A DNA stretch of 64,000 bases from Octopus vulgaris (taxonomy: Eukaryota): assembly GCA_951406725.2 (NCBI GenBank), contig OX597825.1, positions 42,098,001 to 42,162,000 of the forward strand. Direction: 5' to 3'. Positions 2,601 through 56,799 of this stretch are shown here, in pieces (position 1 is the stretch's first letter; each line of letters opens with the position of its first letter). A model generated the notes under the pieces. That model made no database searches and was not told the DNA's origin. It saw only the letters and a list, made by a program, of their open reading frames with translations. A program made the position numbers and the translations under genes.

Positions 2601-2628
2601 AACTCTCTGGGTTTATTTATTTGCATAT

Positions 2629-2832
2629 TCTTTTACTTGTTTCTATCATTTGACAGCAGTCATGCTGGAGCACTGCCTTTTGTCAAACAAATGGACCCCA
2701 TAACTTATTCTTTGTAAGCCTAGTACTTATTCTATCAGGCTCTTTTGCCAAACTGCTAAGTTAATGGGATGTAAACACACCAACATCAGTTGCCAAGTGA
2801 TAGTGTGTGGACAAACACAGACACACAAATAC

Positions 2833-2865
<33 letters not shown>

Positions 2866-3022
2866 TATATATATATATATACAATGGGCTTCTTTAAGTT
2901 TCTGTCTGCCAAATCTACTCACAAGGCTTTGGTCAGCTCGAGGCTAGAGCAGAAGACACTTACCCAAGGTGCCATGTAAAGGGACTAAACCTGGAACCAT
3001 GGGGTTGGGAAGCAAGCTTCTT
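2629..3022 (-). mobile_element. tRNA-derived SINE family A, body (its head is displaced to 5996-6030 by an insertion)
   Basis: Reverse complement matches the complete copy at 54372-54780 (ggcaccttggg..gtcttct..., caaagccttgtgagt, tagaataagtactaggcttacaaagaataag, ggcagtgctccagcatg), including an internal (AT)/(AC) microsatellite. Confidence 0.85.
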
Positions 3023-3385
3023 TATTTTATTAAATTGGCCATGAAGGCCTTACAGAGAAGCAATGTGAGTTGGACATATACATTAATGAGATGAAAATGA
3101 CAAATATGAATGATGGAAATGGGAAGGGTATTCGGTGCCGGCAGACCGAACACCCTTCGAAATCACAGGTTCTTTTATTGCATAAAAATCAAAAAGTCAA
3201 TCAAATATCAAAAATACACTATCACTTTTCCCTTCTTCCTCCTTCCGGACCCCCAGTCATATATCTAGTCGCCTGCAGAGCAGACCGTGTTGACAGCTGG
3301 GAGTTCAGAAAGAAGAAGGCGAAGTGCCTTTTATCAAATGTTTGTGTCACACAGTGCCACAATTTCTAACTCACCACCTTCGCAG

Positions 3386-4450
3386 TTACCTGTGGAGGCC
3401 CAAGTATTCATCGACAGGGCACCCCCCCTCGAGGTAAACGAGGATAAAATCCTCCTCCTCTTCAGGGGGGGTCCCTGTCTGCTCTGTCAGGGGCACAACT
3501 CCCACTGACAGAGCCTCGCACACAGGCGGCACACATCCCACCAGTGCTTCAATAGGCAGCACAGGGCCATCCACTGACTGTCCCCTGCCTCCCCCTTTTC
3601 CTCTTTCCCTTTGAGGCTGCGGGGGCAGGGGTCTGTGTCGGTGGGCACGAAGGGACACTATCTCCTTCCGCCTCCTGTGCTGCCTGCACATTATTTGGTG
3701 AGCAGCCATTGTTGCTCGCCTATATTTTTCTCCTCATGGAGGCAGCTTCCTTCATGACTTCCATCGTCTCCCTCGCCACAGGGGGCGGGGGTGGGTACCT
3801 TACTTTCCTGTGCCAGGGCCATTTTACAGCCCCAGGGGCAGCCCTTCCTAATGTGGCCTGACTCCAGGCACGAATGACACTTGGTGGGGGGCGACCCTCA
3901 AGTATCACCGGATACTTGCAACCAGCCATTTTTAGGAACTCGGGGAATACCATTTTGCCTGTGGCCGATGGGATCCATAAGGTCAAAATTGCTTTTGACC
4001 CCTCCCAGTCGACCGCTGGCATCATTCTCACATTTAAGAGCCTGGGTCCGCTGCCTGATGGTATCCCCAATTCTTCCTGCTTCTGTGCTCAGGGGTAGCC
4101 CACATACCTAGGCTTTTATCACCCTCCTCCCACAATAAGTGGGGAAGAACAAAACTTCTTGCCCCTCAAGTGGCTCGCTGGCAAATCTGCCAGCTTCATC
4201 AGGGGTACCAAACAGCAACCAGACCGTTGCAAATTTGGTTCCCTGTGAAATAAATCTTATAGTTTGCAGGTAGTCTACCAACTCGTTCTCTATCACAATC
4301 TTGTCGAAGAGGGCAATGGCTCCATGCAACCTAGAATAGGCCCGTAGTACCACCATCCTCTTCTCAAGATCGTTAATCTACTGTTTGGTACGGGCCACCT
4401 CCCACTCCAAGGCAGTGGCACTGTTTATTTTTGCTACGCGCAAAAGAAAG
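3386..4450 (-). pseudogene. L1/Tx1-type ORF1 (RRM-like regions plus CCHC zinc knuckle), frameshifted
   Basis: Minus ORF pieces 4108-4356, 3720-4070 and 3386-3709 are collinear. After ILEGRP a frameshift gives TKCHSCLESGHIRKGCP (CX2CX4HX4C, ~3838-3888). VIKA*VCGLP resembles the start of a second RRM. Confidence 0.7.
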
Positions 4451-4866
4451 TCTTAAAAGTTCAACGAAAGTTCAAAGGTCAAAGAAAAAGTCCAAAAAAG
4501 GTACACAAAAAGTTAACAGAAACAATAAAAAAAATAAAACAAAGAAAGTCTAAAAAATAAATAAACAGTTCATAAAGAAAGAAAAAATCAAGAAAGATAG
4601 ACGGAAAAAAGAAAAACAATTCACACAGCAAAAATACAATTTCCTGGCCAACAAGTACTCCCAGCCAAATGTGGATAGGGTCCTTGGTATGAATTTTTTT
4701 TTTCCGTAACTGGTAAAATAAATCCAGTAAATCCAAACACAATACTGGCTACAGCCAACGGTAACTGCAACAGCAACTGTAACAGGTTCACACACACCCC
4801 ACCGCCTTTTTTCACAATAAATTCACAATATACAAAAACAGCAGCCACTGAGAGCAGGCAAAATTA

Positions 4867-5802
4867 CGAGGGACATTCAATAAGTAATGCCCCTGACCCA
4901 CTTGCAGTTGTTTGGTCTTGCTGAAATTTTGCATGTGCAATTATTTATATCTCTATAGATTTAGTGGTAAATTACAGCTTCTGATTCTGGTTTCTGATTT
5001 ACAGGTATTTGAACTGAGTCAAGTGTGAAATGGAGCCTGTTGAGTGTCGAGCAGTGATCCGGTTTTTGCATTTGAAAGGACGCATACCACAGGAGACTTT
5101 TGATGAAATGAAAGTAACTGATGGTGATGATGCCCCATCATATGACCTTGTAAAACGCTAGCAATGTGAATTCAAACATGGTCGGAACTCTGTGGAAACA
5201 GCTCCCAGATCTGGTCACCCCCCTTCTGCCATTGATGAGGCATCTGTCCGTCAAGTTGAGCAAGGTCATGCTCACAGTCTTCTGGGACCAGAACGGAGTA
5301 GTGATGACAGATTTCCTGGCAAAGGGTACCACAATTACAGGAGCCTATTATGCTTCACTTTTGAGGAAATTAAGAGAAGCTATCAAAATCAAGAGGCGGG
5401 GCAAGATCAGCAAAGGCATCCTCCTCCTGCAGGACAACGCTCCGGTCCACAACTCGCGTGTCGCCAGATCAGAAGCACAGGCATGCGTCTATGAACTTCT
5501 CCCCACCCCCTACTCTCCTGACCTTGCACCCTCTGATTTTCACCTCTTCCCAGCCATGAAGTTGTTTTTGAAAGGAAAGCGTTTACCAGATGATGCAGCC
5601 TTGATTTCTGAAGTCACATCGTAGTTGGAGGACCAAGCTGGGGTCTTCTACAAAAACGGTCTCCAGAGCTGCATCAAACACTGGGAGAAACGTGTAACTC
5701 TGGGTGGTTCCTATGTAGAAAAAGACTAATAACTGTGCCAAGTTTCGTTACTCTACTGCTATGGGAAGTGGGTCAGGGACATTACTTATTGAACGCCCCT
5801 CG
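4867..5802 (+). mobile_element. Mariner (DD34D) element with internal deletion
   Basis: TA duplication at 4865-4866 and 5803-5804. ~37-bp TIRs cgaggg..ttcaataagtaatg.ccctgacccactt. Motifs MLTVFWD, LQDNA, YSPDLAPSD. Lacks ~352 bp present in the copy at 46900-48192. Confidence 0.95.
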
Positions 5803-5995
5803 TATCCCAGAGCTGAGCAAAATTTATTAACAAAAAATTACAATATAATAAATTACTCCCAGCTCAGATAAAACAAAACCACCTACTTCGACGACCTTCT
5901 TTGTTTTTGTTCTTTTTTCTTGTAATTGGACGGAGCTAACAAGCCCATGTCCATTCTGGTAAAGCTGAAAGAAGTCGACTAACTGTGCATGTGCA

Positions 5996-6121
5996 GAAGC
6001 AAGCTTCTTACCACACAGCCATGCCTGCACCATCCACACAGCCACATCTGCACCTCCACACACCCACCCCTCAACACAGCCACATCTCCACACAGCCACC
6101 CCTCCACACAACCACACCTCC
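5996..6121 (-). repeat. SINE A head (A-box region) followed by degenerate ~16-bp tandem repeats of it
   Basis: gaagcaagcttcttaccacacagccatgcctgcac is the reverse complement of the SINE A 5' end. ccacacagccac-like units repeat about five more times. Confidence 0.65.
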
Positions 6122-7870
6122 AAATCTTTTATATTTTTTGCTTATTAGTGTCTCTTCCAGGCAGTTCTACCATTTTCTCCTTTGTGGTAATTGTTACCTC
6201 ACTTTGATCAGTTCTATTCTCCCTACCACTGCTTTGTGCAGTGTGGTTGCTGCTGTTTAGGCTTCTTGGTATCATTCTCAACCATGACATTAATATCTTT
6301 ATTTTGGTCCTTTACAAATCCTGAGTTACTTTGGTTGTTGGTTTATTTGTTTGCCTCTTTTTCATGCTGCATCAAGTTGTCTTATTAAAATTCATTTTTT
6401 CCTTTTCGTTTATGTCATTCGTCTCTAGATGACATAGCTCTGCTATCAGATTGTTAAGTGCATTGCACACAGCTAATCTATGCACTACGAAAAACAATAG
6501 GATTTCTTCAACTTGCCAATTTCATTTCACTGTGAATATTATTTTTAAAGATTTCTCCTTAATAAAGTCGGCTTTGTTGACATCCATCCGATTATGGGAT
6601 TTTTTGAGAGAAAAAGAAAGTAGAGCTGCTTGAAATGTGAGTTCATTTGTGGTAAAGATAATAAATTCGTGTAATTAGAATTGACTAGGTGTTTATAACT
6701 TCCAAAGAGATTTGTGATGAAAGCTGAAAGTGCTTAGTTGTTAAGATAATAAGATGGCTTAATTAGATTTATGTGATTGCTTATAATTTCATCGGAAGAG
6801 ATTTATGATGAAAAGTTGAAAAGTGATTTGTTGTGATGAAATAATAAAAGAAAATGAAATAATAAAACGAAATTCAATATAAAAATTTTACCAATTTTAA
6901 GTATGTGACTATAAGGCACAATTAAAATAGTCTTTATAACTTTAATATGTAAATACATTACACACACACACACACACACACATGTAGCGGAAATATTTAG
7001 CAATCAGGTTACTATATCTGATGCCGCAATTCACTGTAATATTGCCTATGTCATCACAAAAATTCTTACCAATCAGGACTTTGCATGGAACAGGCTTGAG
7101 CAACAATTTCATCTTTTGACATACTTCTTTCTGAGCCTAACTATCACTATATATTCAGTGCACATCAGCTTCTACAAGAGATTGTGAACAAATGACAGAC
7201 AGCACCTGATCCATAATACAAAAGCAAGGAACATACAGCAAACAAGACATCAGAAGTTATCCACAATGGACTAATTCCTTCAAATCATAAACACAGTAGC
7301 TATCCACAACAATAGACAAATGGTGATAGCAACATAAGGTCCAGCTAATATTTTGGCTGCTGCTACAATCACATCAATCCAAGAATTTTAATCTTCAACT
7401 CTCTTGATGCTTTGTTGTTCATAGTAACAAGATTTTTTTTAGTTGTATATGTAATGAATAGATATTTTGTTTAGTAAAATCTCAACAGATTTCAGTGTTT
7501 TCCATCGTAGCATATACATACATATATACAGTGTACTTTCGTTGATACATGTACCAACAGTAGACATGCTAATGAAATAGCAGCAACATAGGCAGAAAAC
7601 AAAAATAAAAAACCACAAAACCTTGAAGGAAACAAAATATCTGCGCTACACTACTCAACAGTTAAACCTAATGATAAAATGTAAAGAGAATAATGAGTTC
7701 ACACCTGATCGATTACATCTTCTGTGAAAAGTAATAAATTTCTTGAGGGAAAGCTAATTACTTCAAAATTCAAACTCAGGGTGCTGAGTGAAAAACTTCC
7801 TTATTCTAGAAAAATTTTTCAAGCAAGTTGGTATAAATCATAAATATATATGGATATGTGTAGATGTGGT

Positions 7871-9152: not shown

Positions 9153-9479
9153 ATGTCTAAGATAAATTTAGCTCACGCATCTCCCCTAAATCTGCAACAT
9201 ATCTCTCTCTCTCTCTCAATTATGTCTCTTAATACCTACAACGAAGTATTCTTTCTCCAAGAGATGAGATGCGCCCCTCATGGCTGCTAGTTTTTGCGGT
9301 GCATTCACTCCACCTATCCACCTTTACTGGAAGTCCCAATTTTGTCATCCTTGGTTGTCTCCCATGAGCACTTCAAAAGCTTACGCCAACCCACCCCCTG
9401 CTATATAAAGTTGTGATTTTATAGTGCAAAATATGATAGTGTAGTGTAGGCAGTTTGAACTTAAGTCTATAGTTTGTCT

Positions 9480-12400
9480 ATGAATCCTGCCAAATGCGAG
9501 TTTTCTTTTCAGGTTCATGAAGCTACGGTCCCCCGTCCCAAGGTCCCTAGGGCCCATACCTCCCACACCCTCAGGTTTGGCACCCTCAACGTTGGCACAC
9601 TGAAAGGTAGGTCTGGCGAGATTGTTGAGTTGCTTGAACGGAGATGTGTTGATATGTACTGCATTCAAAAAGTGAGGTGGAGAGGAGGTTCTGCTAGGTT
9701 CCTCACAGGCAAAGAACACAGGTACAAGATTTTCTGTGCTGAGAACACTGACGGGGTCGGGGGCATGGGTACACTTCTTGCAGAGAAATGGGTGGATAAG
9801 GTAATTGAGGTAGTCAGAGTATGCGACAGAATACTTAAGATTAGATTAGTGCTTCATCATGGATTAGCAATCATTATATCGGCCTATGCCCCTCATCCAG
9901 GGCTACCCGATGGACAGAAAGACCGATTCTATGACACCCTACTGCAGACTACCTCGTTGACATGGGCATGTTGGACAACATACAGGGGGCTTCTATGGCG
10001 TACATTGAGGCTACGGTTATGGTTCCCGCAATGAGGAGGGAACCAGGCTGCTGGAGTTCTGTGATGCAAATGATCTTATGGTTTGCAACACTAACTTCAG
10101 GAAACCTACCAGCCACCTAGCCACCTACCGATCGGGCTGACATACCAGCTAAATTGACTACATCCTTGCCAGGAAAAGGGAAAGATGGCTGCTTATAAAT
10201 GCCAAAACCTTCCCAGGCGAAGAATGTATCCTACAACATAGACTGGTAGTTAGTGACTTTAGGATCAGGACTAAGAGGACGACCAGAAGACGACCAACAT
10301 GGAGTAAAAGGGTCTGGAAGCTTAAAGATCCTGCGAAGGGACAGAGATTTAGAGACATATTACTTGAAGCCTTTGACGAAATAGAAGGGGATATAGCTTC
10401 ACAAAGGGTAGAAGACAACTGGAGGTTCCTATGGGACAACCTGCTAAGGGCGACTGACCAGATCTGTGGATGGTGCAAAGTCCCCTCAAAACCCAAAATA
10501 ACGTGGTGGTGGAACAATATTGTTGACAGGGTTATTAGACAAAAGAAACAGGCTTGGAAGGACTGGAAGAACGGTGGTAGCAGGGAAGTGTATCAGACTG
10601 CCAGAAGGGAAGCTAGGAGGCAGGTGTATTTAGCCAGAGGGGAAGCAGATAAGAAAAAATTTGCCAATGTTCTGTGCTGTGAAGCCGAAAGACTTGAGGT
10701 ATTTCATGTTGCAAGATAGTGTGTGAAAGAGAATTGTGATGTGGTAGGAGAGAAATGTGTTCGCATGCATGAAGGTTCACTTGCGCTAAATGAGGATGCA
10801 AAGAGAGAGGTTTGGAGATGCAACTATGAAAGGTTGCTGAATAAAGAAAATGCACGGGATAAAGAGAGTCTGCCGAATGTCGACCCAACAGAGGGGCCAG
10901 CTATCCGTGTTGACAGTTCCTTGGTAGTCAAGGCAATTAGAAGCATGAAGACAGGGAAAGCCTCAGGCCCATCAGAAATTACTGCAGAGATGCTCAAAAT
11001 ATCTGGCAGTGTCGTCTATAGCCTAGTCACCCGTATGGCTAACCAGGTGATACACGAAAGAGTCATACCCAATGACTGGTGTAGCAGCATAATAGTTAAC
11101 TGCTACAAAGGTAAAGGTGACGCCCAAGATACAAATAATTACAGAGGTATGAAACTGTTGGATCAGGTAATGAAGGTTGCGTAGAGGGTCATAGCCCAAC
11201 TTATTAGGGAGAGAGTCAACTTGGATGAGATGCAGTTTGGTTTCGTGCCAGGGAAAAGTACCACTGATGCCATATTTCTGGTAAGACAGCTGCAGCAGCA
11301 ATACCTAACCAAAGATAAGGCCCTGTACCTGGCTTTGGTTGACATGAAGAAAGCATTTGACAGGGTCCCCCGATCCCTTATCTGGTGGTCAATGAGGAAA
11401 CAAGGGATAAATGAATGGTTAATGAGAGCTGTGCAAGCCATGTACAGGGACGCTGTAAGTAAGGTAAGGGTTGGCAATGAGTACACTGAAGAATTCAGGG
11501 TAGAGGTAGGGGTCTATCAGGGTTCAGCCCTCTGCCCCCTTCTATTTATCATAGTCCTCCAGGCAATAACGGAGGGATTCCAGACAGTATGCCCCTGGGA
11601 GCTCCTCTATGCTGATGACCTTGCTCTAATTGCTGAGTTACTATCAGTACTAGAGGAGAAGTTCCAGGTATGGAAACAAGGATTAGAATCAAAGGGACTT
11701 AGAGACAACCTAGCTAAAACCAAAGTCCTAATAAGTAGGAAGGCAGGCAAACCACAAATCCCTTCAGGTAGATGGCCTTGCTCGATTTGTTGTAGAAGTG
11801 TAGGTAGAAACTGTGAAAGATGTACCTATTGTAAGATATGGACACATAAGAGGTGCAGTAATATCAAAGGAAGGCTAACTGGGAAAATAGTTTTTGCATA
11901 TGGCAGATGCTTGGGAGCAATAAACACTGAAAATGCGCAGAGACCAACCTCCGCCACATTCCAGGAGGAAAAACCAGAAGTAGTTGATAACTTCGGTTAT
12001 CTAGGTGACCAAATCAGTAGCGGAGGAGGGTGCACTGAAAGTGTCGCTGCTAGAATATGAATAGCTTGGGCAAAGTTCAGAGAGCTCTTACCTCTGCTGG
12101 TGACAAAGGGCCTCTTGCTCAGAGTAAAAGGTAGACAGCATGATGCATGTGTACGAACAGCCATGCTACACGGCAGTGAAACATGGGCTGTGACTGCTGA
12201 GGATATGCGTAAGCTCACAAGGAATGAAGCCAGTATGATCCGATGGATGTGTAATGTCAATGTGCATACACATCAGAGTGTAAGTACCTTGAGAGAAAAG
12301 TTGGGCCTAAGAAGCATTAGATGTGGTGTGCAAGAGAGACGAATGCGCTGGTATGGTCATGTGGCGAGAATGGATGAGGATAGCTGTGTGAAAAAGTACC

Positions 12401-31690: not shown

Positions 31691-32860
31691 TATGTTTGAC
31701 TTTTGCTTTACATTTGTACAAGTTGGCTCCAAGTCTCAAGAGACAAGTTGGAAGTTCATGTTGGTGTTATGCCTAGGATGCCATGTATTTGGTTTTGTAC
31801 TTAGTGTTGTACTAGTGAATGTTTTAAGAAACCATAAAAAAATTATGCTTGTTTTAAAACTTGAGTTTACATAGAAAGTATTTTGCATAGGAGATGAGCA
31901 GTTCCCATGAGCACTTTGTTTTCAATTTCTGCCATTTTTAGGTTTCCTGATATCTGAGCTAGATATCAATCAGCCCCTTTTGCTATCATTCCCAGGGCAC
32001 CTATGACAACAGGTATTATTTTAGCCTTCGAGTTTCACATTTTGTTAATTTCTATTTCAAGATCTTTATATTTGCTCAGTTTTTGGTAGGTCTTGACAAA
32101 TACGTTTATATCGATTGGGACAGTCATATCAATGAGGAGGCATGTTTTTTGTCTGAAGTCTTTTACTATGATGTCTGGCCTATTCGCATCTATCTTTCTG
32201 TCAGTTTGAATGGTGAAGTCCCAGAGGAGTGAGATGTGGTCATTTTGAAGCACTGGAGGTGGTTTGTGTTCCCACCAGTTTTTATCATGGGGCAAGTCTA
32301 GGCTTTTGCAAATTACCCAGTGAATATATTGTGCAGCTCTATCATGCCTGTTGAGATACTCTGTAGGCACAAGAAGACTGCACTTGGAGACAACATGATC
32401 AAGGGTTTCATTTTGTTGTTGACATACACAACATGTTGGGCTACTGTCGTTCTTTAATGTGTTGGCCTGGTTGTTCCTTGTAGGTAAGCATTGATCTTGA
32501 GCTGCTATGATAAACCCTTCTGTTTCAGATTTTAAGCCAGAGGCCATTAGTTATTGATGGGTCAGGGCTTTGTCAACATTGGCATTATACGCTCTCTTTG
32601 GGTATTTGCCATTGAGAGGTTTTTCTTGCCATTTATCATTCAGAATATCTAAGGTAGCAGTTTTAGTGTGGGTTTTCATGCACTTAGCTTTCTCTGTGCT
32701 TGTTTCTTGTATGTCTAATTCCGAAATTTGTTGTATTCGGAATTCATTTAGATATTCCTTTGCCTGTTTTGTTACTGAGTATGATGCTTTCTTGTTTTCA
32801 TGTTTTGAGACAAGTTTTAATATCCAGTCCTCAGAGTTTTTCAGGTAGGTGTCTAGGCCA
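31691..32860 (-). mobile_element. 5'-truncated R4/Dong-type RLE non-LTR retrotransposon
   Basis: ETEGFIIAAQDQ, zinc finger CCVC...ETLDHVVSKC, RHD, NRPDII..IDMTVP..K..KY (restriction-like endonuclease). (TTA)n on both sides. Confidence 0.9.
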
Positions 32861-33537: not shown

Positions 33538-35288
33538 CCTCAATTTTATGGCTATATACATATGCACACATATATGTATGTCAATATGTTTGTGTATGTA
33601 TACATTTTTATATGCATGTATAATACATGCATATTTATATAGGCATATATTTTGCATTATATCACATTCTTTTTCTCACAAAAGCTTTTAAAACAGTAAA
33701 ATGTGATCTGTAGAAGAAACTACTTTTGGAAATTAATTTTAGTTTCTTTTCCGGAGCTAAAAAAATTAACTTAGTGAAACGAGGAAAAAAGTTTTAAAAA
33801 GGAAAATAAAATAGTGTACAATGTCAGCATAGTGCAGGTTTTGAGCATATAATTTCATTAAAACCAGACAAATATAAATTTAATTTAGAAATGTTAACAT
33901 GCTGCTGTTCACTTTCAATTTATCATTAGTCAGATTTCTTTAGCTTTTCTTTTATGCATTGTGATAGAATGTGATAGGGGTCAGATGGCCAAGTGACCAG
34001 TATTTGGGATTATCTGGTCATGAGTTCAAATTTGTTGTTAGTCATATAGCAGGGCATACCTTTCTACTTTGTTTCAGATCAATCAAATTCAAACTAGAGC
34101 CAACCAAATCATCTTTGTCTGTCTTGCAAGTTGATCAGAGCAGGACAGCTACCAAATAGTCATCCTATTTTTCCTAAAATTTTTTATGTTGTTGATGTTA
34201 ATAAGATTCATTTTGACTTGGGTATATTGTCAAATACTTACAGTTCTCTACTAGTCAGATGCCACAGCAGAAGTATGTCAACCCATGCATTCTATTCAAG
34301 GTTAGTGGTGGGTAACCATAATAACCATCTCAAGAGTAATGTACAAATCAGTAAGGATCAACTGTACAGATTATTCCAGAGGACTTTCAGCTCAGGAATA
34401 TTGGACAGAAATCTGACAGAAACCTGTAGCTTAGCATTGATTTGGCAAGAACTGCTTGTTTGCAATAAATACTACATGCACAATAGCACTGTTAGCTGGG
34501 CTAGTTTCAGATGTACACAAGGCAATGAAATCATTTTGAATGCATGAATTCATTATTCAATTGTTGCTGTCAAGTGAAATTATGTTAAAGAGCTGTAGTT
34601 ATATGTAGTGAGAATCTGGATATCATCCAAGTCCATCAGGAGGATCATGATTGTATGACGGATAAAGGTTGAAGACAGACACTCACTTCTTCAGCAAAGC
34701 CCTGATCAAAAGTTTTAAGTTGCACATGAAAGGGAAGATGAAATTGGTAAACAAGATAGTACCTTTGAGTAGATTTGCTGAAAAGTGGGACTAAGTGGTG
34801 GAATAATTGATATAGATTTTATGGGAGCTTGTAGGCCTGAGAATAAAGCTGGTACATGTCAGATATGTGGGTTTCTCAATTCCTCCATGGCTAAATCCCA
34901 ATCATGTTCTCTTTTATACTTTTTGCACATACATTTTCCATAGCACTTTTCATAATCAATTCTTTGTAATCACTCATAATTTTAGATAATTTATCTTAGT
35001 AATCTTGTCTCATTTATTACCTTTACTATAAATAAAATAATTATTATTACCATAATTAATATGTTTAATACTATTGATGCCTATTAATCTTTTGAAAAGA
35101 AATATTTTATAAAATTTCAATCTTATATCTTCACATTGAGTTTCTATCAATTTGACTGGTAATTATAATCTGATACATATTACCAACTGGAATCAAACTA
35201 GGAATAATTATCCTGCCAGCATGGAAAGCAGACGTTAAACAATGATGATCATGATCATGATCATTATGATATATATATATACACACAC

Positions 35289-37629: not shown

Positions 37630-40500
37630 CAGGAGGCACTGGGCACGTCAGTTGTCTCCCCCATTGATTCACCTTACCGTGCATATTTTATCCGAGATGC
37701 TATTTCTTCAAAGTCCTTTATGGTGGACACAGGAGCCAGTGTTATTATCTGGCCTCAAATGCTTACTTCCACCAATCCTGGCCTTTCTGACATATCTCTC
37801 TACGTAGTGAATCATTCCACCATTAAAACCTACGGACAAATCTCTCTTACCCTGGATTTATCATTCCATAGGGATTTCAAGTAGATGTTCATCACTGCAG
37901 ACCTGCCATATCCCATCCTTCTTACATCGCTATTCTCTCCTTGTTGACATTAGAGGATACCAGCTTATTGATGATACTATCTCACTTACAATCTCCAGAA
38001 AGGATTCTACTGTTCCTGTAGTGAACCCTTCTTTCTTTATGGCTTGTTCAGGTGACCTTACCACCAGTTACTCACTTTGTCTCAAAAGTTGTCAGATTAG
38101 TGATTTCATCCGTCGAATCCAGCCCATTCCACGAGACATTTCATCACCATTAAGGGACCTCCAATTTTTCCCGATTGCACCGTTTGCCTCCAGAGAAACT
38201 CCAGATCACCCAGGCTGCAGTTGAACTCATGCTCCAGCTTGGCCTCATTTGTCCTTCCATCAGCCCATGGGCAGCACCTTTACACATGGCCAGGAAGAAT
38301 GAAGCTGATTTTTGACCGGTTGGAGATTTTAGACGTCTTAACACTGTCACTATGGCAGATCGTTATCTGCTACCAAATGTGCAGGGATTTTCGTCTGCCC
38401 TGCATGTCTAAGACTTTTTCTAAAATCGACTTGGTATGCACGTACCATCAAATCCCTGTCAACCCCGATGACATTCCAAAGACAGCCAACACCATGCCTT
38501 TTTGAGCGTTTGAACTTTTGCCTATGTCTTTTGGTCTTTGCAATGTTGCCAGCATATTCCAAAGGTTCGTTGATGAGGTCGTCCGTGGGTTAGACTTTGT
38601 CTTCATATACGTCAATGACCTTCTAATTGCCAGTGATACTCCAGACCAACACCTCCAACACTTAACCCAACTGTTCAAGTGACTACATTCCTATGATGTG
38701 AAGATCAATCCAGCTAAATATATATTTAGTTCAACCAGTTTGGAATTCTTGGGGAATCTCATTGACGCTGACGGTATTCGTCTGCATTCCTCTAAGGTCG
38801 AAACCATCAAACGCTAGTTTCTTCCTGTTCCCTTAAAGCAGCTCAATTATTATCATCATTTCATTCCTAACTGTGCAGAGAAGTTGCTTCTCTTGACCCA
38901 GCTTTTGAAACATCAACAGGAAAAAGACTCCCCAATAACGCTGTCTCCTACAGCCATCCAAGTTTTTGAATCTGTCACAGCTAACCTGGTCCAAGCATCC
39001 TTCCTCGCTCACCCTGTTGAGATGCAAAATTGTCACCCACTGTAAACGTGTCATCACCTGCTATTGCCACAGTTTTAGAGTAATTTATCAACAGCCATTG
39101 GCTTTCTTTTCTTGCCAATTGAAAGATGTCGAACCGAGATACAGTGTGTTTGGTAACTCTTAGCAATTTATCTAGCAGTGGAGTATTTCTCTCATCTTCT
39201 CGAAGGTAGAGATTTCATGATTTTCACCGACCACAAATCAATAACATTTGCTCTTTTTGCGAAAACGGACCAGTACTCATCCAGAGAAACAACGCATTTG
39301 GAGAAACAAAGCATATAACAATAGGACAAAATTTATCATGTTTACTCTCAACCGAATATCACAGTTCACTAGTGACATTCGGCACATCGCTTGCACTGAC
39401 AACATCCCCATCAATGCCTTATCTCACCTGCCTGTTGGTGCATTGTCGTTTCCTGCTTTGATTGATTTGGTTGCTATGGCAACTGACCATCCCTCCTTGG
39501 ACTCTCTGAACGCCTCTTCACCACAGTTTGAATACCTGCCTCTGCCTTTTTTTGAAGGAGCTATTCTCTGTGATGTTTCTACTGGGTCACCCTGACCCTT
39601 TATTCATGAACATCACCGTTCTGCTGTTTTAGAAGCACTGCATTCACTGTCACACACCGGCATTGTGGTCACAGTAAAGCTTATCTCGGCCCGTTTTTCT
39701 GGCCGAATATGCATTGGTGTATTACTGCTTGGTCACGTGACTGTCTACCATGTCAGCGTTCTAAGGTGCACCGTCACATGAGAGCACCTCTTGGGCACTT
39801 CCAGTCACCGGACACCAGGTTCCATCACATACACATCGACCTGGTTGGTCCTTGGCTAGTCAGTTGCAGATATACTTATATATTGACCTGCACTGACCGC
39901 TTCTCTAGATGGCCTGAGGCCATCCCTCTTGTGGACATTTCCACGGAAACAGCCGCCAGAGAACTCATCTCTGGGTGGATATCTCGCTTCGGAGAGCCCT
40001 CTAGAATTATTACTGATCGTGGACGCCAATTTGAAGCTTGTCTGTTCCGTGAGCTTTCGAGATTGCTCGTTGTTCAGCACATCCACACTAGTTACCATAC
40101 TACCACGAATGGATTGGTGGAACGATTCCACCGCCAGCTTAAAGCCACTGTTGGTGCTGCTCCTGATCCTCATCTTTGGTCCGAGTTTCTCCCCATTGTT
40201 TTGCTGGGGTGCCACTCAGCTGTCAAAGAAGATTTAGGCTACTCCTCTGCTGAGTTCCTGTATGGCACCACTTTAGCACTTTCTGGACAAATGTTGGCAC
40301 CCGTCGACTTATCGGATGTGGATCCCACATCTTACATCACGCGTCTGATGTAAGGTCATTCTTTGCTGACCTGCCACCAATACTTCCTCGCACCCAATCT
40401 ATTTCTTCTACAGTACCTCTGGATATTTCTACTTGGGCTCATGTGTTTGTAAGAAATGAGGATGTCAAGGGACCGCTTACACCACCCTACACTTGTCCTA
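37630..40500 (+). pseudogene. gypsy pol (protease, RT, RNase H, integrase)
   Basis: FMVDTGAS; DFRRLN, FSKIDL..YHQIPV and YVND (38608-38619); FTDHK; integrase H..H..CLPC and HIDLVGP/TDRGRQF/NGLVERFHR. Confidence 0.92.
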
Positions 40501-46477: not shown

Positions 46478-46830
46478 CCAGCCACATGGTTCCAGGTACA
46501 CTCCCACTGCGTAGCACCTTGGGCAAGTGTCTTCAACTATAGCTTCAGACCAGCCTTGTGAGTGGATTTAGTAGGCAGAAACTGAAAGAAGTTCATTATG
46601 TGTGTGTGTGTGTGTGTGTGCCTTTGTGTCTGTTCCTCCCCACCACTGCTTGAAAACTGATATTGGTATGTTTACATCCTTGTAACTTGGCACTTCAGCC
46701 AAAGAGACTGATAGACTAAGTACCAGGCATAAAAAGAAAATAAGTATTTCAGTCGAATAGTTCAACTAAAATTCCTCATGGCAGTGCCCCAGCATGGTTG
46801 CATTCTAATGACTAAAACATAATAAAAAAA
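46478..46830 (+). mobile_element. SINE family A
   Basis: ccagccacatggttccagg...cttgggcaagtgtctt...gccttgtgagtggattt...ccccagcatgg. Confidence 0.8.
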
Positions 46831-49596: not shown

Positions 49597-50753
49597 TAAT
49601 TGTTTGTCGTAGACCCGTTAAGAAGTGGCTTGTATTTTGTAATAAAGAGATTTTCTTTACTTATTCATTGTCTCGAGGTTGTATCGTCCCTAAATTGGTA
49701 GAGGGGGAAAATCTTGAAGTTTGGTGTTTTTTTGTTGGCGCAAGTATCTATGTGTTGGCTAAAAGCTATTTTTCTGTTTTGGGGAATTTTTATCTGGGAT
49801 CTGTGCAGGGCCATTCGTTTACGCAAACCATTTTTTGTTTGGCCTATGTACTGCTCTTGACACCCGGAGCAGGTTAGTGAGTATATTAGGTTCTCCGAAG
49901 CACATGTGAAGTTGCTTTTCACTGTAAACCGTTGTCCCTGTTTGAAGGAGAACTCTGATCCCTCAATTAGATAGTCGCATATCCCGCAATTGGGTCTTCC
50001 ACATTTTTTTACTGTCGGCTTCTGTGTTGAAGAGTGAATTCGGGCTTGTGTTAGGAGACTTTTCATGGATCTAGGCTGTCTTTTGCTTTTTATGATCGTG
50101 TGTGTTTGGAGGATTGTGTTCATTCTGTGGTCTTTTTTTAGGAGGGGTATGTTGTGGAGGATGGTGTCGAAGGCTTCGTTATTGAGAGGGTTGTGTGTGG
50201 AGATGTATGGTAAGGCTTTTGGTTGTAAGTTTTTCTTTGATTTGGGATGTCTCAGTTCCTTGATGTTAAGTTGAAGGGCACGTTGAATGCACTTGTTAAT
50301 AAGTGAAGGTGGATAGTTCCTGGTGATAAGGGTATCTTTTAGTTCTTGTAGTCGTGTGTCTCTGGTGTTTGCGTAAGAGACTATAGTGCATATCCTTTTT
50401 GCTAGATTGAAGGGGATATTCATCCTGGTGTGTCTGGGGTGGCATGAATTGAATGGAAGATATTGCTTAGAGTCTGTAGGCTTATAGTATATGTCTGTTT
50501 CTATTATATTATTAGCTTTCTTAATGAGGATATCGAGGAAGGGGAGTTGTTGCTGGCTATATTCCATCGTGAATTGGATGTTTACATCCAGTCCGTTTAA
50601 AATTTCCTGGAATTCTATGAGTTTTTCTATATTTTTATGCCAAAGGATGAAACAGTCATCTAGATATCTCTTCCAGTTGTTTTCTATGTAGATGGAGAAA
50701 GGGCTGCCATATCTTTCTAGAACCTTACGATACAGACTGATCTCTAGGTATCC
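49597..50753 (-). pseudogene. PLE RT C-terminal half plus GIY-YIG endonuclease
   Basis: WKRYLDD (YLDD 50655-50666), LPFLD, YYKPTD, CGRPNCGIC, NLIYSLTC..C..QYIGQT. Open for ~360 codons, then one TGA at 49665, and the frame continues ISKENLFITKYKPLLN. Confidence 0.92.
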
Positions 50754-50908
50754 TACTACAGAAATATTCTTTTAAAAAAACTTTTCTTCTAATTTTTCTA
50801 AATTTAATTATTTAATCATTACAGTTGAAAAGGTCTCAAAATGACCGAGACCGGTACTGAAAGATTCACTATAAAATTATCTTAGCATTTTCTATTTTTG
50901 ACTTGTTT

Positions 50909-54371: not shown

Positions 54372-54780
54372 TAGGTGTAGGAGTGATTGTGTGGTAAGTT
54401 GCTTGCTTACCAGCCACATGGTTCAAGTTTCAGTACTACTGCATGGCACCTTGGGCAAGTGTCTTCTACTATAGCTTTGGGCCAACCAAAGCCTTGTGAG
54501 TGGATTTGGTAGGCAGAAACTGAAAAAAGCCCATCGTATATATATATAAATTTGTGTATGTGTATGTGTGTGTATGTTTATTTATCTGTACTTGTCCCCC
54601 AACATCACTTGACAACCGCTGCAGGTGTGTTTACATCTCCGTAACTTAGTGATTTGGCAAAAGAGACCAATAGAATAAGTACTAGGCTTACAAAGAATAA
54701 GTCCTAGGTTGATTTGCTCGACTAAAGGCAGTGCTCCAGCATGGCCACAGTCAAATGACTGAAACAAATAAGAGTAAAAG
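54372..54780 (+). mobile_element. tRNA-derived SINE family A, full length
   Basis: A-box-like tgattgtgtggtaag, body with internal microsatellite, tail gactgaaacaaataagagtaaaag. Confidence 0.88.
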
Positions 54781-56799
54781 AATACACACACACACACACA
54801 CACGTGCATATATAAATACATATATATATGTGTGTGTGTGTGTGTACAAAAGTCTGTAGCATATAATATATGTTGATGTTTTGCTTATTTTAATTATTTC
54901 ATTCTCTTTCCATGTGATTAAGTTTGGTTTAACATCTAAAGAATCTAGAATGAATAATTTTCTTGGTAATAATCCTGGGCTAATTTTAGAAATAGAAGGA
55001 AGTTACATTTCAACTATAGAAATAATATTTGTTTAAAATTCTGTCGATAATTTTGTTTGTATTTTTGGCTTAATTGTAAAATATTCACGTGGCTGAGGAA
55101 TGATTGTGTTGAAAAAAAGAAAGAAAGAAAAAACATTTTGCATTCATTATTTAGTCTGATATATATTATTACTATTAGTTGGTTAGAGGTTTGTTTTTTT
55201 TTAATTCTTCTCCTAATCATTGATTTTAAAACTTTAAATTATGTTAACTAGGAACTTACAAGACAAAAGATAAGAGAAAATACAAAAATGAAAAATCAAA
55301 TTAAAATGTCAGTCTTTTTGTTTCAAAATTTAAATAGAAATGATAATTTGTCATTTAAATGTGCAAATTGAATAAATAATGAATATCAATTCGTTTTATG
55401 AATCATCAAAAGTGGAAGATAACCAACTTTTAAATAAGACATTCTTTAGATAATAAAATGCAAGTACCAGCTTTATTTTGATTTTCGTGTTCTTGTTTTA
55501 AATCAGTGAAATTAGAACGATATAAAAAAAATCATTCAATGTGTCTAGTCTTTCTTCTCTCCTAGTTGATAAGTTATGAATATACAATCATACTGAAGAT
55601 AAGAACTAACATACTTCCTTCATATATTCATGAAGTAGGTGAGTATTCGCTTATTCAATACATGAAAATATCACAACACTAACTAGAAATAAATTTGTGG
55701 CGAGGTACTGTTCATATCTCAGCTTTTAGAATAAATGCCTTGTACCGATGCATGTTATAAAAGATGATTAAAAGAGTAGACATCAGAAAAGGAATACAGT
55801 CATAAAACATTGCCTATGGCAGCATGGAAAAACAAATATGAAAATGATGATGATGATGATGACAATAAAGAGTAGGAAAAGGAGGGAGAAGAGAAGCAGT
55901 AAACATTAGTCAGTAACAAATAGCAAATATTATTACTAATAATAAATGTTGTTCTATATGAATTTTTCTATCCTGGATCTGTGCTTTTGAAGAATTTAAT
56001 TTAATTTAAAATTTATGCTACTGGTATTTGTATTTTCCAGTGTGTTTGAGAAACAATTCTGCATATCTTTCAGTATTTTTCTGGGAAAACAGCAGCATCC
56101 ATAGCCTTGTCAGTAATACTGGAAGTTTTGGGAGAATCACTAAGTAAAAAAAATACTGATTCTTATTTTGTTGAAACATTAAAATAATATGGTGACAAAT
56201 TTAATTCCTTGCTGCATATATCGACAGTACTTATCTAATTTTGTGAATCAATAATTTATTAGATCAGCACAAAATAATAAGTTTATGTAAAAAGAGCTTA
56301 ATCAATCTAATTGGCTTTCAGTATATTACTGGTATATATTTTATTGATCCTGAGAGAACAGAGAATAAGTTTTATCCCACTGAAATTTGAACTCAAAACC
56401 TAAAAAGATTGAACTAAATACTAATAGGCATTTAGTGTAAGAATCTGCTTTTTTTCTTTTTGTTTTTTTTTTCCCCCAACTAACACTACTTTAGATAATC
56501 AATAAAGATGACTTTTAATCTTTATGACTTTTATTGAATAAATTGATCATAGTACATTGCTCCTACTTCATTTCAGAGGGACCATTCATGTAGTTGCTCA
56601 TCTTCCTAAAAATCTCACTCAAACTTTCTTTATCTAGCACTCCCTTTTCTTAAAAATTGAAAGGATGTATTGAATAATGTTGTCCAAGACACAGTACATC
56701 ATTAAAAAAAAATGAAAAACATGAAACATTTCTGGATGGAATATCTATCAGATTATTGATGAACTGGAGCAGGGTCCTATTTCCAAAAAAAGGGCAACA

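Follow-up and report, generated by a model that had tools for sequence, protein, structure and literature searches.

Does an insertion in a repeat of the octopus genome represent a retroposon that encodes only the first open reading frame (ORF1) of a long interspersed element (LINE) and, if so, what copied it? The insertion occupies positions 3009 to 6009 of the window, a stretch of 64,000 nucleotides (nt) from Octopus vulgaris contig OX597825.1 (42,098,001 to 42,162,000). A preliminary description, made from the sequence alone, had taken it for a complete HAL1-like element without an endonuclease (EN) or reverse transcriptase (RT). With a probability of roughly 0.85, the insert is an inactive member of a high-copy family that has ORF1 only and lacks long terminal repeats (LTRs). 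The family inserts at one site in the head of a short interspersed element (SINE) and probably relies for its copying, in trans, on the ORF2 protein (ORF2p) of an autonomous partner. This reading rests on the ORF1-only structure of the family, its fixed target, its 5'-truncated copies, its tandem arrays, the intact EN-RT ORF2 of the partner, a 3' hairpin and purifying selection on ORF1.

Structure and decay of the window copy

The 14-mer GAAGCAAGCTTCTT was present identically at both edges of the insert (3009-3022 and 5996-6009), as had been claimed. The flanks aligned to positions 2-35 (85% identity) and 24-409 (81%) of another copy of the SINE in this genome, intact and 416 nt long, and the SINE halves therefore rejoin when the insert is removed. 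Also in agreement with the preliminary description, the insert contained a later mariner transposon with 39-nt inverted ends, including the TA, and a transposase match (PF01359, E 7e-18); its site was empty in relatives, whose two alignment halves were separated by a 2-nt gap. Without the mariner the insert measured ~2,035 bp, too short for EN and RT, and read on the minus strand as a 5' untranslated region (UTR) of ~620 nt, an ORF1 remnant spanning ~400 codons by homology (~4437-3243) and a 3' UTR of ~220 nt. The features, in window coordinates, were as follows.

6010..6031, minus: 5' piece of the host SINE head with an A-box-like GGCTGTGTGGT; together with the repeat it matches intact SINE positions 2-35
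5996..6009, minus: 5' copy of the target duplication (AAGAAGCTTGCTTC in the element sense); the same sequence stands at the 5' junction of relatives
5805..5995, minus: 5' UTR upstream of the mariner, at most 92% identical to other copies
4865..5804, plus: mariner that inserted later, with a TA duplication and inverted ends; what is left of its transposase lies at 5154-5624
4438..4864, minus: T-rich 5' UTR downstream of the mariner, from the sequence and comparison with relatives
3243..4437, minus: decayed ORF1 (two predicted RNA recognition motifs (RRMs), CCHC knuckle, low-complexity and C-terminal part), placed by homology, with the fold predicted on an intact relative
~3400-3243, minus: swapped tail segment, still homologous to the ORF1 C-terminus, from comparison with relatives
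3838..3879, minus: zinc knuckle, CX2CX4HX4C, by motif; PF00098 matches in relatives fall below the curated cut-off
3023..3242, minus: 3' UTR ending AATAAAATA, without poly(A), from the sequence and relatives
3037..3049, minus: hairpin with a 4-bp stem and 5-nt loop, common to the autonomous partner, from the end alignment
3009..3022, minus: 3' copy of the target duplication, identical 14-mer
2626..3008, minus: remainder of the host SINE, comprising a segment that resembles a B box, CCTTGGG, a microsatellite in the middle and the 3' part, 81% identical to the intact copy over 397 columns

Other details had to be revised. The knuckle of the proposed gag-like ORF was present (3879-3838), but the continuous frame of ~350 codons was not, the remnant lacking the ATG of its relatives and containing several stops and at least four frame changes. 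The 3' UTR had been put at ~360 bp, longer than the homology of ORF1 to ~3243 allows, and no poly(A) was found at the 3' end, where an A-rich tail had been described and where the copy terminates in ...AATTTAATAAAATA. The window copy is a dead member of an ORF1-only family: it lacks a start codon and a poly(A) tail, and several stops and frameshifts break its frame. The repeat itself proved to be real but not a private target-site duplication (TSD): it is the fixed target of the family, 15 nt long in relatives, which carried the same repeat and the same SINE flanks, with SINE on both sides of nearly all full-length copies. This strict target specificity had not featured in the preliminary description. 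The nearest relatives among the fetched loci (designated L) were 87% (ORF1) to 92% (UTRs) identical to the window copy; with the substitution rate that PMC13282606 (this and the other articles cited here were consulted in part) gives, 0.0036 per million years, its age would be, very roughly, 12-19 million years.

A high-copy family without ORF2

The genome (2.8 Gb, 227 contigs) was searched with the insert DNA, which returned 1,783 candidates (40 scored), and with the ORF1 protein, which returned 11,273; all 150 scored among the latter had E<=1.6e-77, many with open frames of 416-437 amino acids (aa). Many family copies were young and intact. No ORF2 lay between ORF1 and the 3' end in 59 rows, representing 55 distinct loci. 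An end-like junction followed 0.7-1.7 kb from the ORF1 start in 54 of these rows, five of which showed an inner end-like motif, and was absent from the other five. At 40 further loci, taken with 5 kb downstream, a junction was found within 2.3 kb in 37 and ORF2 was absent in 39, the exception being a separate downstream element with its own ORF1. ORF2 thus stood behind this ORF1 in none of the 95 distinct loci (55 plus 40), which bears out the earlier proposal of a non-autonomous family with many ~2-kb copies. Two candidates were rejected: L166 consists of two elements and not of one with ORF1 then ORF2, and an RT match in L002 lies beyond the 3' junction of its ORF1 element. As in HAL1, the family was multicopy and bore the marks of retrotransposition (TSDs and 5' truncation).

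Two related lineages, A (which includes the window copy) and B, were ~62% identical; a separate 1.5-kb lineage, C, was ~25% identical to both. Tails were mosaic, the last ~380 nt of the window copy being found also behind a B-like ORF1. Five loci (L011, L012, L017, L024 and L027) showed an inner end-like motif and partial target followed by a further tail segment, likely the trace of new 3' tails acquired from array neighbours. Short contigs from runs labelled as three other organisms together covered 30 of 30 bins of a young A-B array, a weak hint at wider distribution; those of one run, guessed to be RNA, covered both young units, which says nothing on transcription. A look for RNA runs containing the sequences listed none.

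Fold, relatives and selection of ORF1

Residues 1-217 of an intact A copy were modelled with AlphaFold2 from a 10-row alignment (predicted local distance difference test score 80.5), giving two alpha/beta domains before the knuckle. Foldseek listed tandem-RRM proteins for this model, VIA a La RRM (Z 9.8, root mean square deviation 2.4, 82 aligned) and Atlas, as a lead, CCHC and ZCCHC3-like clusters; no capsid or L1 ORF1 protein (ORF1p) structure was among the fold matches listed for these residues, which excludes neither. A PDB sequence search with ORF1 gave weak knuckle matches only, and Pfam detected zf-CCHC in intact copies but not the Transposase_22 domain of mammalian L1-type ORF1s. ORF1 is accordingly modelled as two RRMs and a CCHC knuckle, the arrangement that the preliminary description had given for Tx1/L1 ORF1s; an ORF1 of this type (type I) has been described as consistent with the Tx1 clade (PMC5203782).

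In a database search with an intact ORF1, the sole relative at E<=0.001 was an Octopus sinensis protein with 60% identity. The O. sinensis gene model LOC115225585 belongs to the A/B clade and is probably an annotated transposon copy, not a host gene. This ORF1 was ~26% identical to that of the partner, and all autonomous lineages with a readable ORF1 (L145-type, L151, L154, L155, L156 and L158) were 22-31% identical to A/B. In a 29-row tree, A, B and the O. sinensis protein formed a long-branched clade (100/100) with no autonomous member. This clade stood apart from C and from three autonomous ORF1s in a tree whose deeper branches were not separated, which suggests that ORF1-only elements may have arisen at least twice.

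Ratios of non-synonymous to synonymous substitution (dN/dS) were estimated by the Nei-Gojobori method for 13 of 64 distinct stop-free copies, using pairs with dS>0.05 and leaving out a frameshifted cluster. Comparisons of A with B gave 0.15-0.21, those among A copies 0.27-0.46 and those among B copies 0.13-0.27. All bootstrap upper bounds were below 1, indicating that ORF1 is under purifying selection. These results bear on the alternative that survives best, although we consider it improbable: that the 2-kb units are recurrent, short-lived deletion products of unsampled or lost autonomous elements with this ORF1, in which the selection acted. Such derivatives are common among Drosophila telomeric elements (PMC13534243), and sampling was incomplete, 150 of the 11,273 candidates having been scored. 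The alternative fits poorly, however, with the absence of ORF2 from all 95 loci, the low identity of every readable autonomous ORF1, an A/B clade without autonomous members and young B subfamilies that diverge at a dN/dS of 0.13-0.27.

An autonomous partner at the same target

The partner measured 5,453-5,457 nt between identical target copies and encoded an ORF1 and a 1,133-aa ORF2 with endonuclease, RT and zinc-motif domains (PF03372, PF00078 and PF13966). All six of the young full-length copies that were fetched (L145-L150), first found beside ORF1-only arrays, lay between target copies in the SINE, and the 14 best genome matches to the partner endonuclease were 100% identical. The best solved relative of ORF2 was L1 ORF2p (E 4e-67, versus 1e-19 for R2); an Argonauta protein was among its closest relatives, and a coral protein that its source calls 'Transposon TX1' was 31% identical over 726 columns. 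With an apurinic/apyrimidinic-type (APE) endonuclease, RT, a C-terminal zinc motif, a place in the L1 group and sequence-specific insertion, the partner shows characters of the Tx1 clade and, judged from its sequence, is an L1/Tx1-group element.

The preliminary description had called for an autonomous L1/Tx1 relative with the last ~150 bp in common. Such a relative exists, but rider and partner shared only the last ~30-40 nt and showed no 5' UTR similarity. The family ended in ...RAAATA, with the target immediately next and no poly(A). Within the shared terminal nucleotides RNAalifold, unaided, predicted a hairpin of 4 bp; in an alignment of 25 ends, hand-picked from 171 junction matches, 99 of 100 cells were paired and two pairs had changed on both sides (T-A/G-C and C-G/T-A). 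The rider thus joins a 5' part with ORF1 to a 3' end shared with an autonomous LINE, as do members of the HeT-A, HAL1 and Ag-Sponge class.

Riders and partners also occurred together. One SINE held seven ORF1-only units and one partner (L100, L099, L111), near-identical units of which may in part be tandem duplications. Two mixed arrays, C-A-partner (L164) and partner-A-partner (L159/L160), require separate insertions. Among the first 30 junctions on contig C1, ORF1 was found within 1.5 kb upstream in 12, ORF2 in nine and neither in nine. An older partner subfamily (L216) had the same end as the window copy and lay in the same older SINE variant.

It is very unlikely that the family, though a true ORF1-only retroposon, was moved by another LINE and that the common target is coincidental or a relic. 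Overlap with the partner is indeed restricted to ~30-40 nt at the 3' end, with dissimilar 5' UTRs, and related Tx1-like lineages with other flanks exist; yet rider and partner agree in target, orientation, hairpin and terminal bases, share mixed arrays, and match in both young and old partner subfamilies.

Further autonomous lineages (L151, L152, L153, L154 and L155) had 60-66% ORF2 identity and flanks other than the SINE site. In L155, a ~2-kb ORF1-only unit lay directly upstream of the autonomous element, which suggests the same rider pattern at another target. A second SINE family, seen upstream of L047 and on the minus strand of L152 (~6820-7090 when read from the 3' end of that locus), had an end segment 87-90% identical over 29-47 nt to Tx1-like 3' ends; owing to this resemblance, it was likely mobilised by this LINE group.

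One insertion site in the SINE head

A 29-nt 3'-end pattern without target bases gave 24 matches, including the window copy, of which 18 continued into the target. Exact matches genome-wide numbered 1,166 for the filled junction and 57,534 for the empty 33-nt site, and none for either reversed control; empty sites, though numerous, account for ~1 in 100,000 genome positions. The insertion site lay between the A- and B-box-like motifs of a tRNA-like SINE head, which we assign on the box consensus that we assume for such promoters. Older copies occupied an AAGAAG..TTCC variant of the SINE and young ones AAGTAG..TAAC/TTAC.

Inserts of 52, 106, 185, 255, 563, 646, 936, 1,209 and 1,334 nt had both junctions, and such truncated inserts of varied length must therefore be independent insertions. 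In nine cases private target variants (positions 7-11) were present on both sides, which establishes a real target duplication; duplications were 9-15 nt long. The search patterns fixed target positions 1-9. In one subfamily (at least 14 of 78 inserts) the 5' side always carried the subfamily's own variant from target position 10, which makes the element RNA a likely source of part of the 5' repeat. Very short inserts (52-255 nt) were found at the target in L210, L221, L232 and L236; in L221 the 63 nt at the 5' end of lineage B are fused to a 3' end, which makes it a possible SINE-sized derivative.

That the insert entered the SINE once and then spread as cargo of a composite SINE is even less plausible than transport by another LINE. 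SINE sequence does stand on both sides of nearly all full-length copies, as cargo would require, but the idea is contradicted by inserts truncated at many points that keep both junctions and by private target variants duplicated on both sides; differing host SINE variants and different families stacked at one site also speak against it. Least likely of all is that an LTR element supplied the ORF as its gag and left the insert as a remnant, a notion that only the CCHC knuckle favours. No LTRs or other long direct repeats bound the insert, duplications measure 9-15 nt and the copies are truncated at the 5' end; the ORF shares homology with the ORF1 of a non-LTR element with EN and RT, and its predicted fold is a tandem RRM.

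The head of the host SINE contains A and B boxes and resembles a tRNA (z about 6 relative to shuffled genomic tRNAs), and the 57,534 exact 33-mers indicate a very high copy number. Rfam gave no tRNA match on the window region or the intact SINE, only low-complexity matches, and ARAGORN found no tRNA in the window. The target was absent from the 14 best-scoring rows among 30 genomic tRNA loci (8 isotypes) compared with the SINE. SINE and elements have nothing in common beyond the target, so the SINE was likely moved by another LINE. It contains CCTTGGG, a CORE-SINE motif according to PMC5786205, and might correspond to the octopus CORE-SINE OR2.

Proposed mechanism and its weaknesses

Mobilisation in trans by partner ORF2p is suggested by the shared target, the shared tail and the arrays. 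The RNA of the element likely begins inside a target-like leader and would be coated in cis by its own ORF1p (two RRMs and CCHC), which would explain selection on ORF1 in a lineage without ORF2. Partner ORF2p may recognise the terminal hairpin and the TGAAATA end, not poly(A), while its endonuclease would nick the bottom strand of the SINE at CTT/ACC and prime reverse transcription. CTT/ACC is a T/A step, like the cut of the L1 endonuclease. Second-strand cleavage 9-15 nt away would duplicate the target, and each insertion would rebuild the site, permitting head-to-tail stacking and 3' tail exchange. The SINE would offer tens of thousands of dispensable landing sites; by moving the A box away from the B box, an insertion is predicted to shut off the SINE copy that it enters, while host genes are spared.

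Several points weigh against this reading. The 25 aligned ends were hand-picked and are interrelated, so that the paired changes amount to about two events; the motif was lacking in 20 of 85 distinct ends and had a mismatched pair in four. Six of the 24 ends found without target bases were off target. The partner is placed in the Tx1 clade by its domain order, by its targeting and by 31% identity to a protein whose name was assigned automatically, not by a reference tree. With 150 of 11,273 candidates scored, a rare autonomous element with this ORF1 is possible. The A-versus-B dS of 1.1-1.7 is near saturation, and the copies compared were chosen as stop-free.

Other features of the window

A degenerate 16-nt CA-rich tandem repeat (6007-6123) adjoined the SINE head. 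Two further host SINE copies were present (46478-46827 and 54373-54781), the second full length and empty. A decayed endonuclease/RT element lay on the plus strand at 9465-12057; its RT was just 25% identical to that of the partner. Other putative retroelement remnants, labelled by eye from translations as C-terminal parts of RT, a frame resembling an integrase and one resembling a Penelope RT, lay at 32038-32550, 34278-34634, 39610-40350 and 49668-50771.

Relation to known systems and significance

The label 'HAL1-like' suits the design of the family but not its membership, as ORF1 type and tail differ. HAL1 elements have a poly(A) tail. Like HAL1 of mammals (PMC5753468), the octopus family is non-autonomous, encodes ORF1p only and would depend on the ORF2p of a partner; unlike HAL1, it has an RRM and CCHC ORF1 in place of Transposase_22, no poly(A), a strict target, a Tx1-type partner and an invertebrate host. 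Non-autonomous LINEs that retain ORF1 have been described as a class comprising HeT-A, HAL1 and Ag-Sponge (PMC5786205). HeT-A, other ORF1-only Drosophila telomeric elements and Ag-Sponge (PMC5786205, PMC13534243) resemble the octopus family in forming head-to-tail arrays mixed with autonomous partners in one specialised niche. They derive, however, from the Jockey or CR1 clades, and those of Drosophila lie at chromosome ends, whereas the octopus family occupies a dispersed sequence, part of a SINE, and duplicates its target.

On the partner side, Tx1-Mar with SINEU of crocodilians, Xenopus Tx1, Keno, Kibi and Koshi (PMC4494074) are likewise Tx1-type elements at a set position in another repeat, with tandem insertions sandwiching the TSD and non-autonomous riders on the same target. 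No tRNA-head SINE is among the targets named in the consulted part of that article, which are DNA transposons, LTR elements, genes for small nuclear RNA and 5S RNA, satellites and microsatellites. Its riders are non-coding SINEs, whereas those of the octopus keep a selected ORF1. Stringent-type LINE/SINE pairs (PMC3747384) also have a short 3' hairpin with compensatory changes, common to partner and rider; the octopus rider differs in being a 2-kb protein-coding element with a stem of only 4 bp. A repeat annotation of O. vulgaris (PMC13282606) lists 13 recently active L1-Tx1 families with 421 insertions, whose mean length of ~5.4 kb is close to the 5.45 kb of the partner. The part of its text consulted reports neither targeting nor ORF1-only families, and its consensus library may already hold these sequences.

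Outside Repbase Reports and most subscription journals, which the search did not cover, no report of SINE-targeting Tx1 elements or of ORF1-only families in cephalopods was found; the families may already be named in Repbase, Dfam, the PMC13282606 library or the PMC4494074 supplements. Each ingredient has precedent, both ORF1-only LINE derivatives and repeat-targeting Tx1 elements with riders. Within the scope of that search, their combination in a cephalopod appears to be new: a Tx1-type element with a specific target, a tRNA-head SINE as that target, and riders that carry ORF1 only. It amounts to a HAL1- or HeT-A-like design on Tx1-type targeting.

The family provides evolutionary evidence that ORF1p serves its own RNA even though ORF2p would come from an element whose ORF1 is 74% diverged; in the parts of the literature consulted, such cis service is only proposed for HAL1-type elements. 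An intact young rider, partner, target and minimal 3' signal all exist, which makes the proposal directly testable, and the system supplies a new sequence-specific APE endonuclease and target pair. More tentatively, and at somewhat less than even odds, octopus genomes may harbour a long-lived system of three tiers. In it, a Tx1-type LINE would have evolved an endonuclease directed at the promoter region of the most abundant SINE, and two or more ORF1-only lineages of separate origin would parasitise that LINE. One of them, A/B, would have outlived its parent LINE, keeping under selection an RNA chaperone that serves itself and attaching through a 13-nt hairpin, and the targets would follow SINE variants through time. 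If true, this would be an arms race of element against element and a compact, testable model of an ORF1p acting in cis with a site-specific ORF2p acting in trans.

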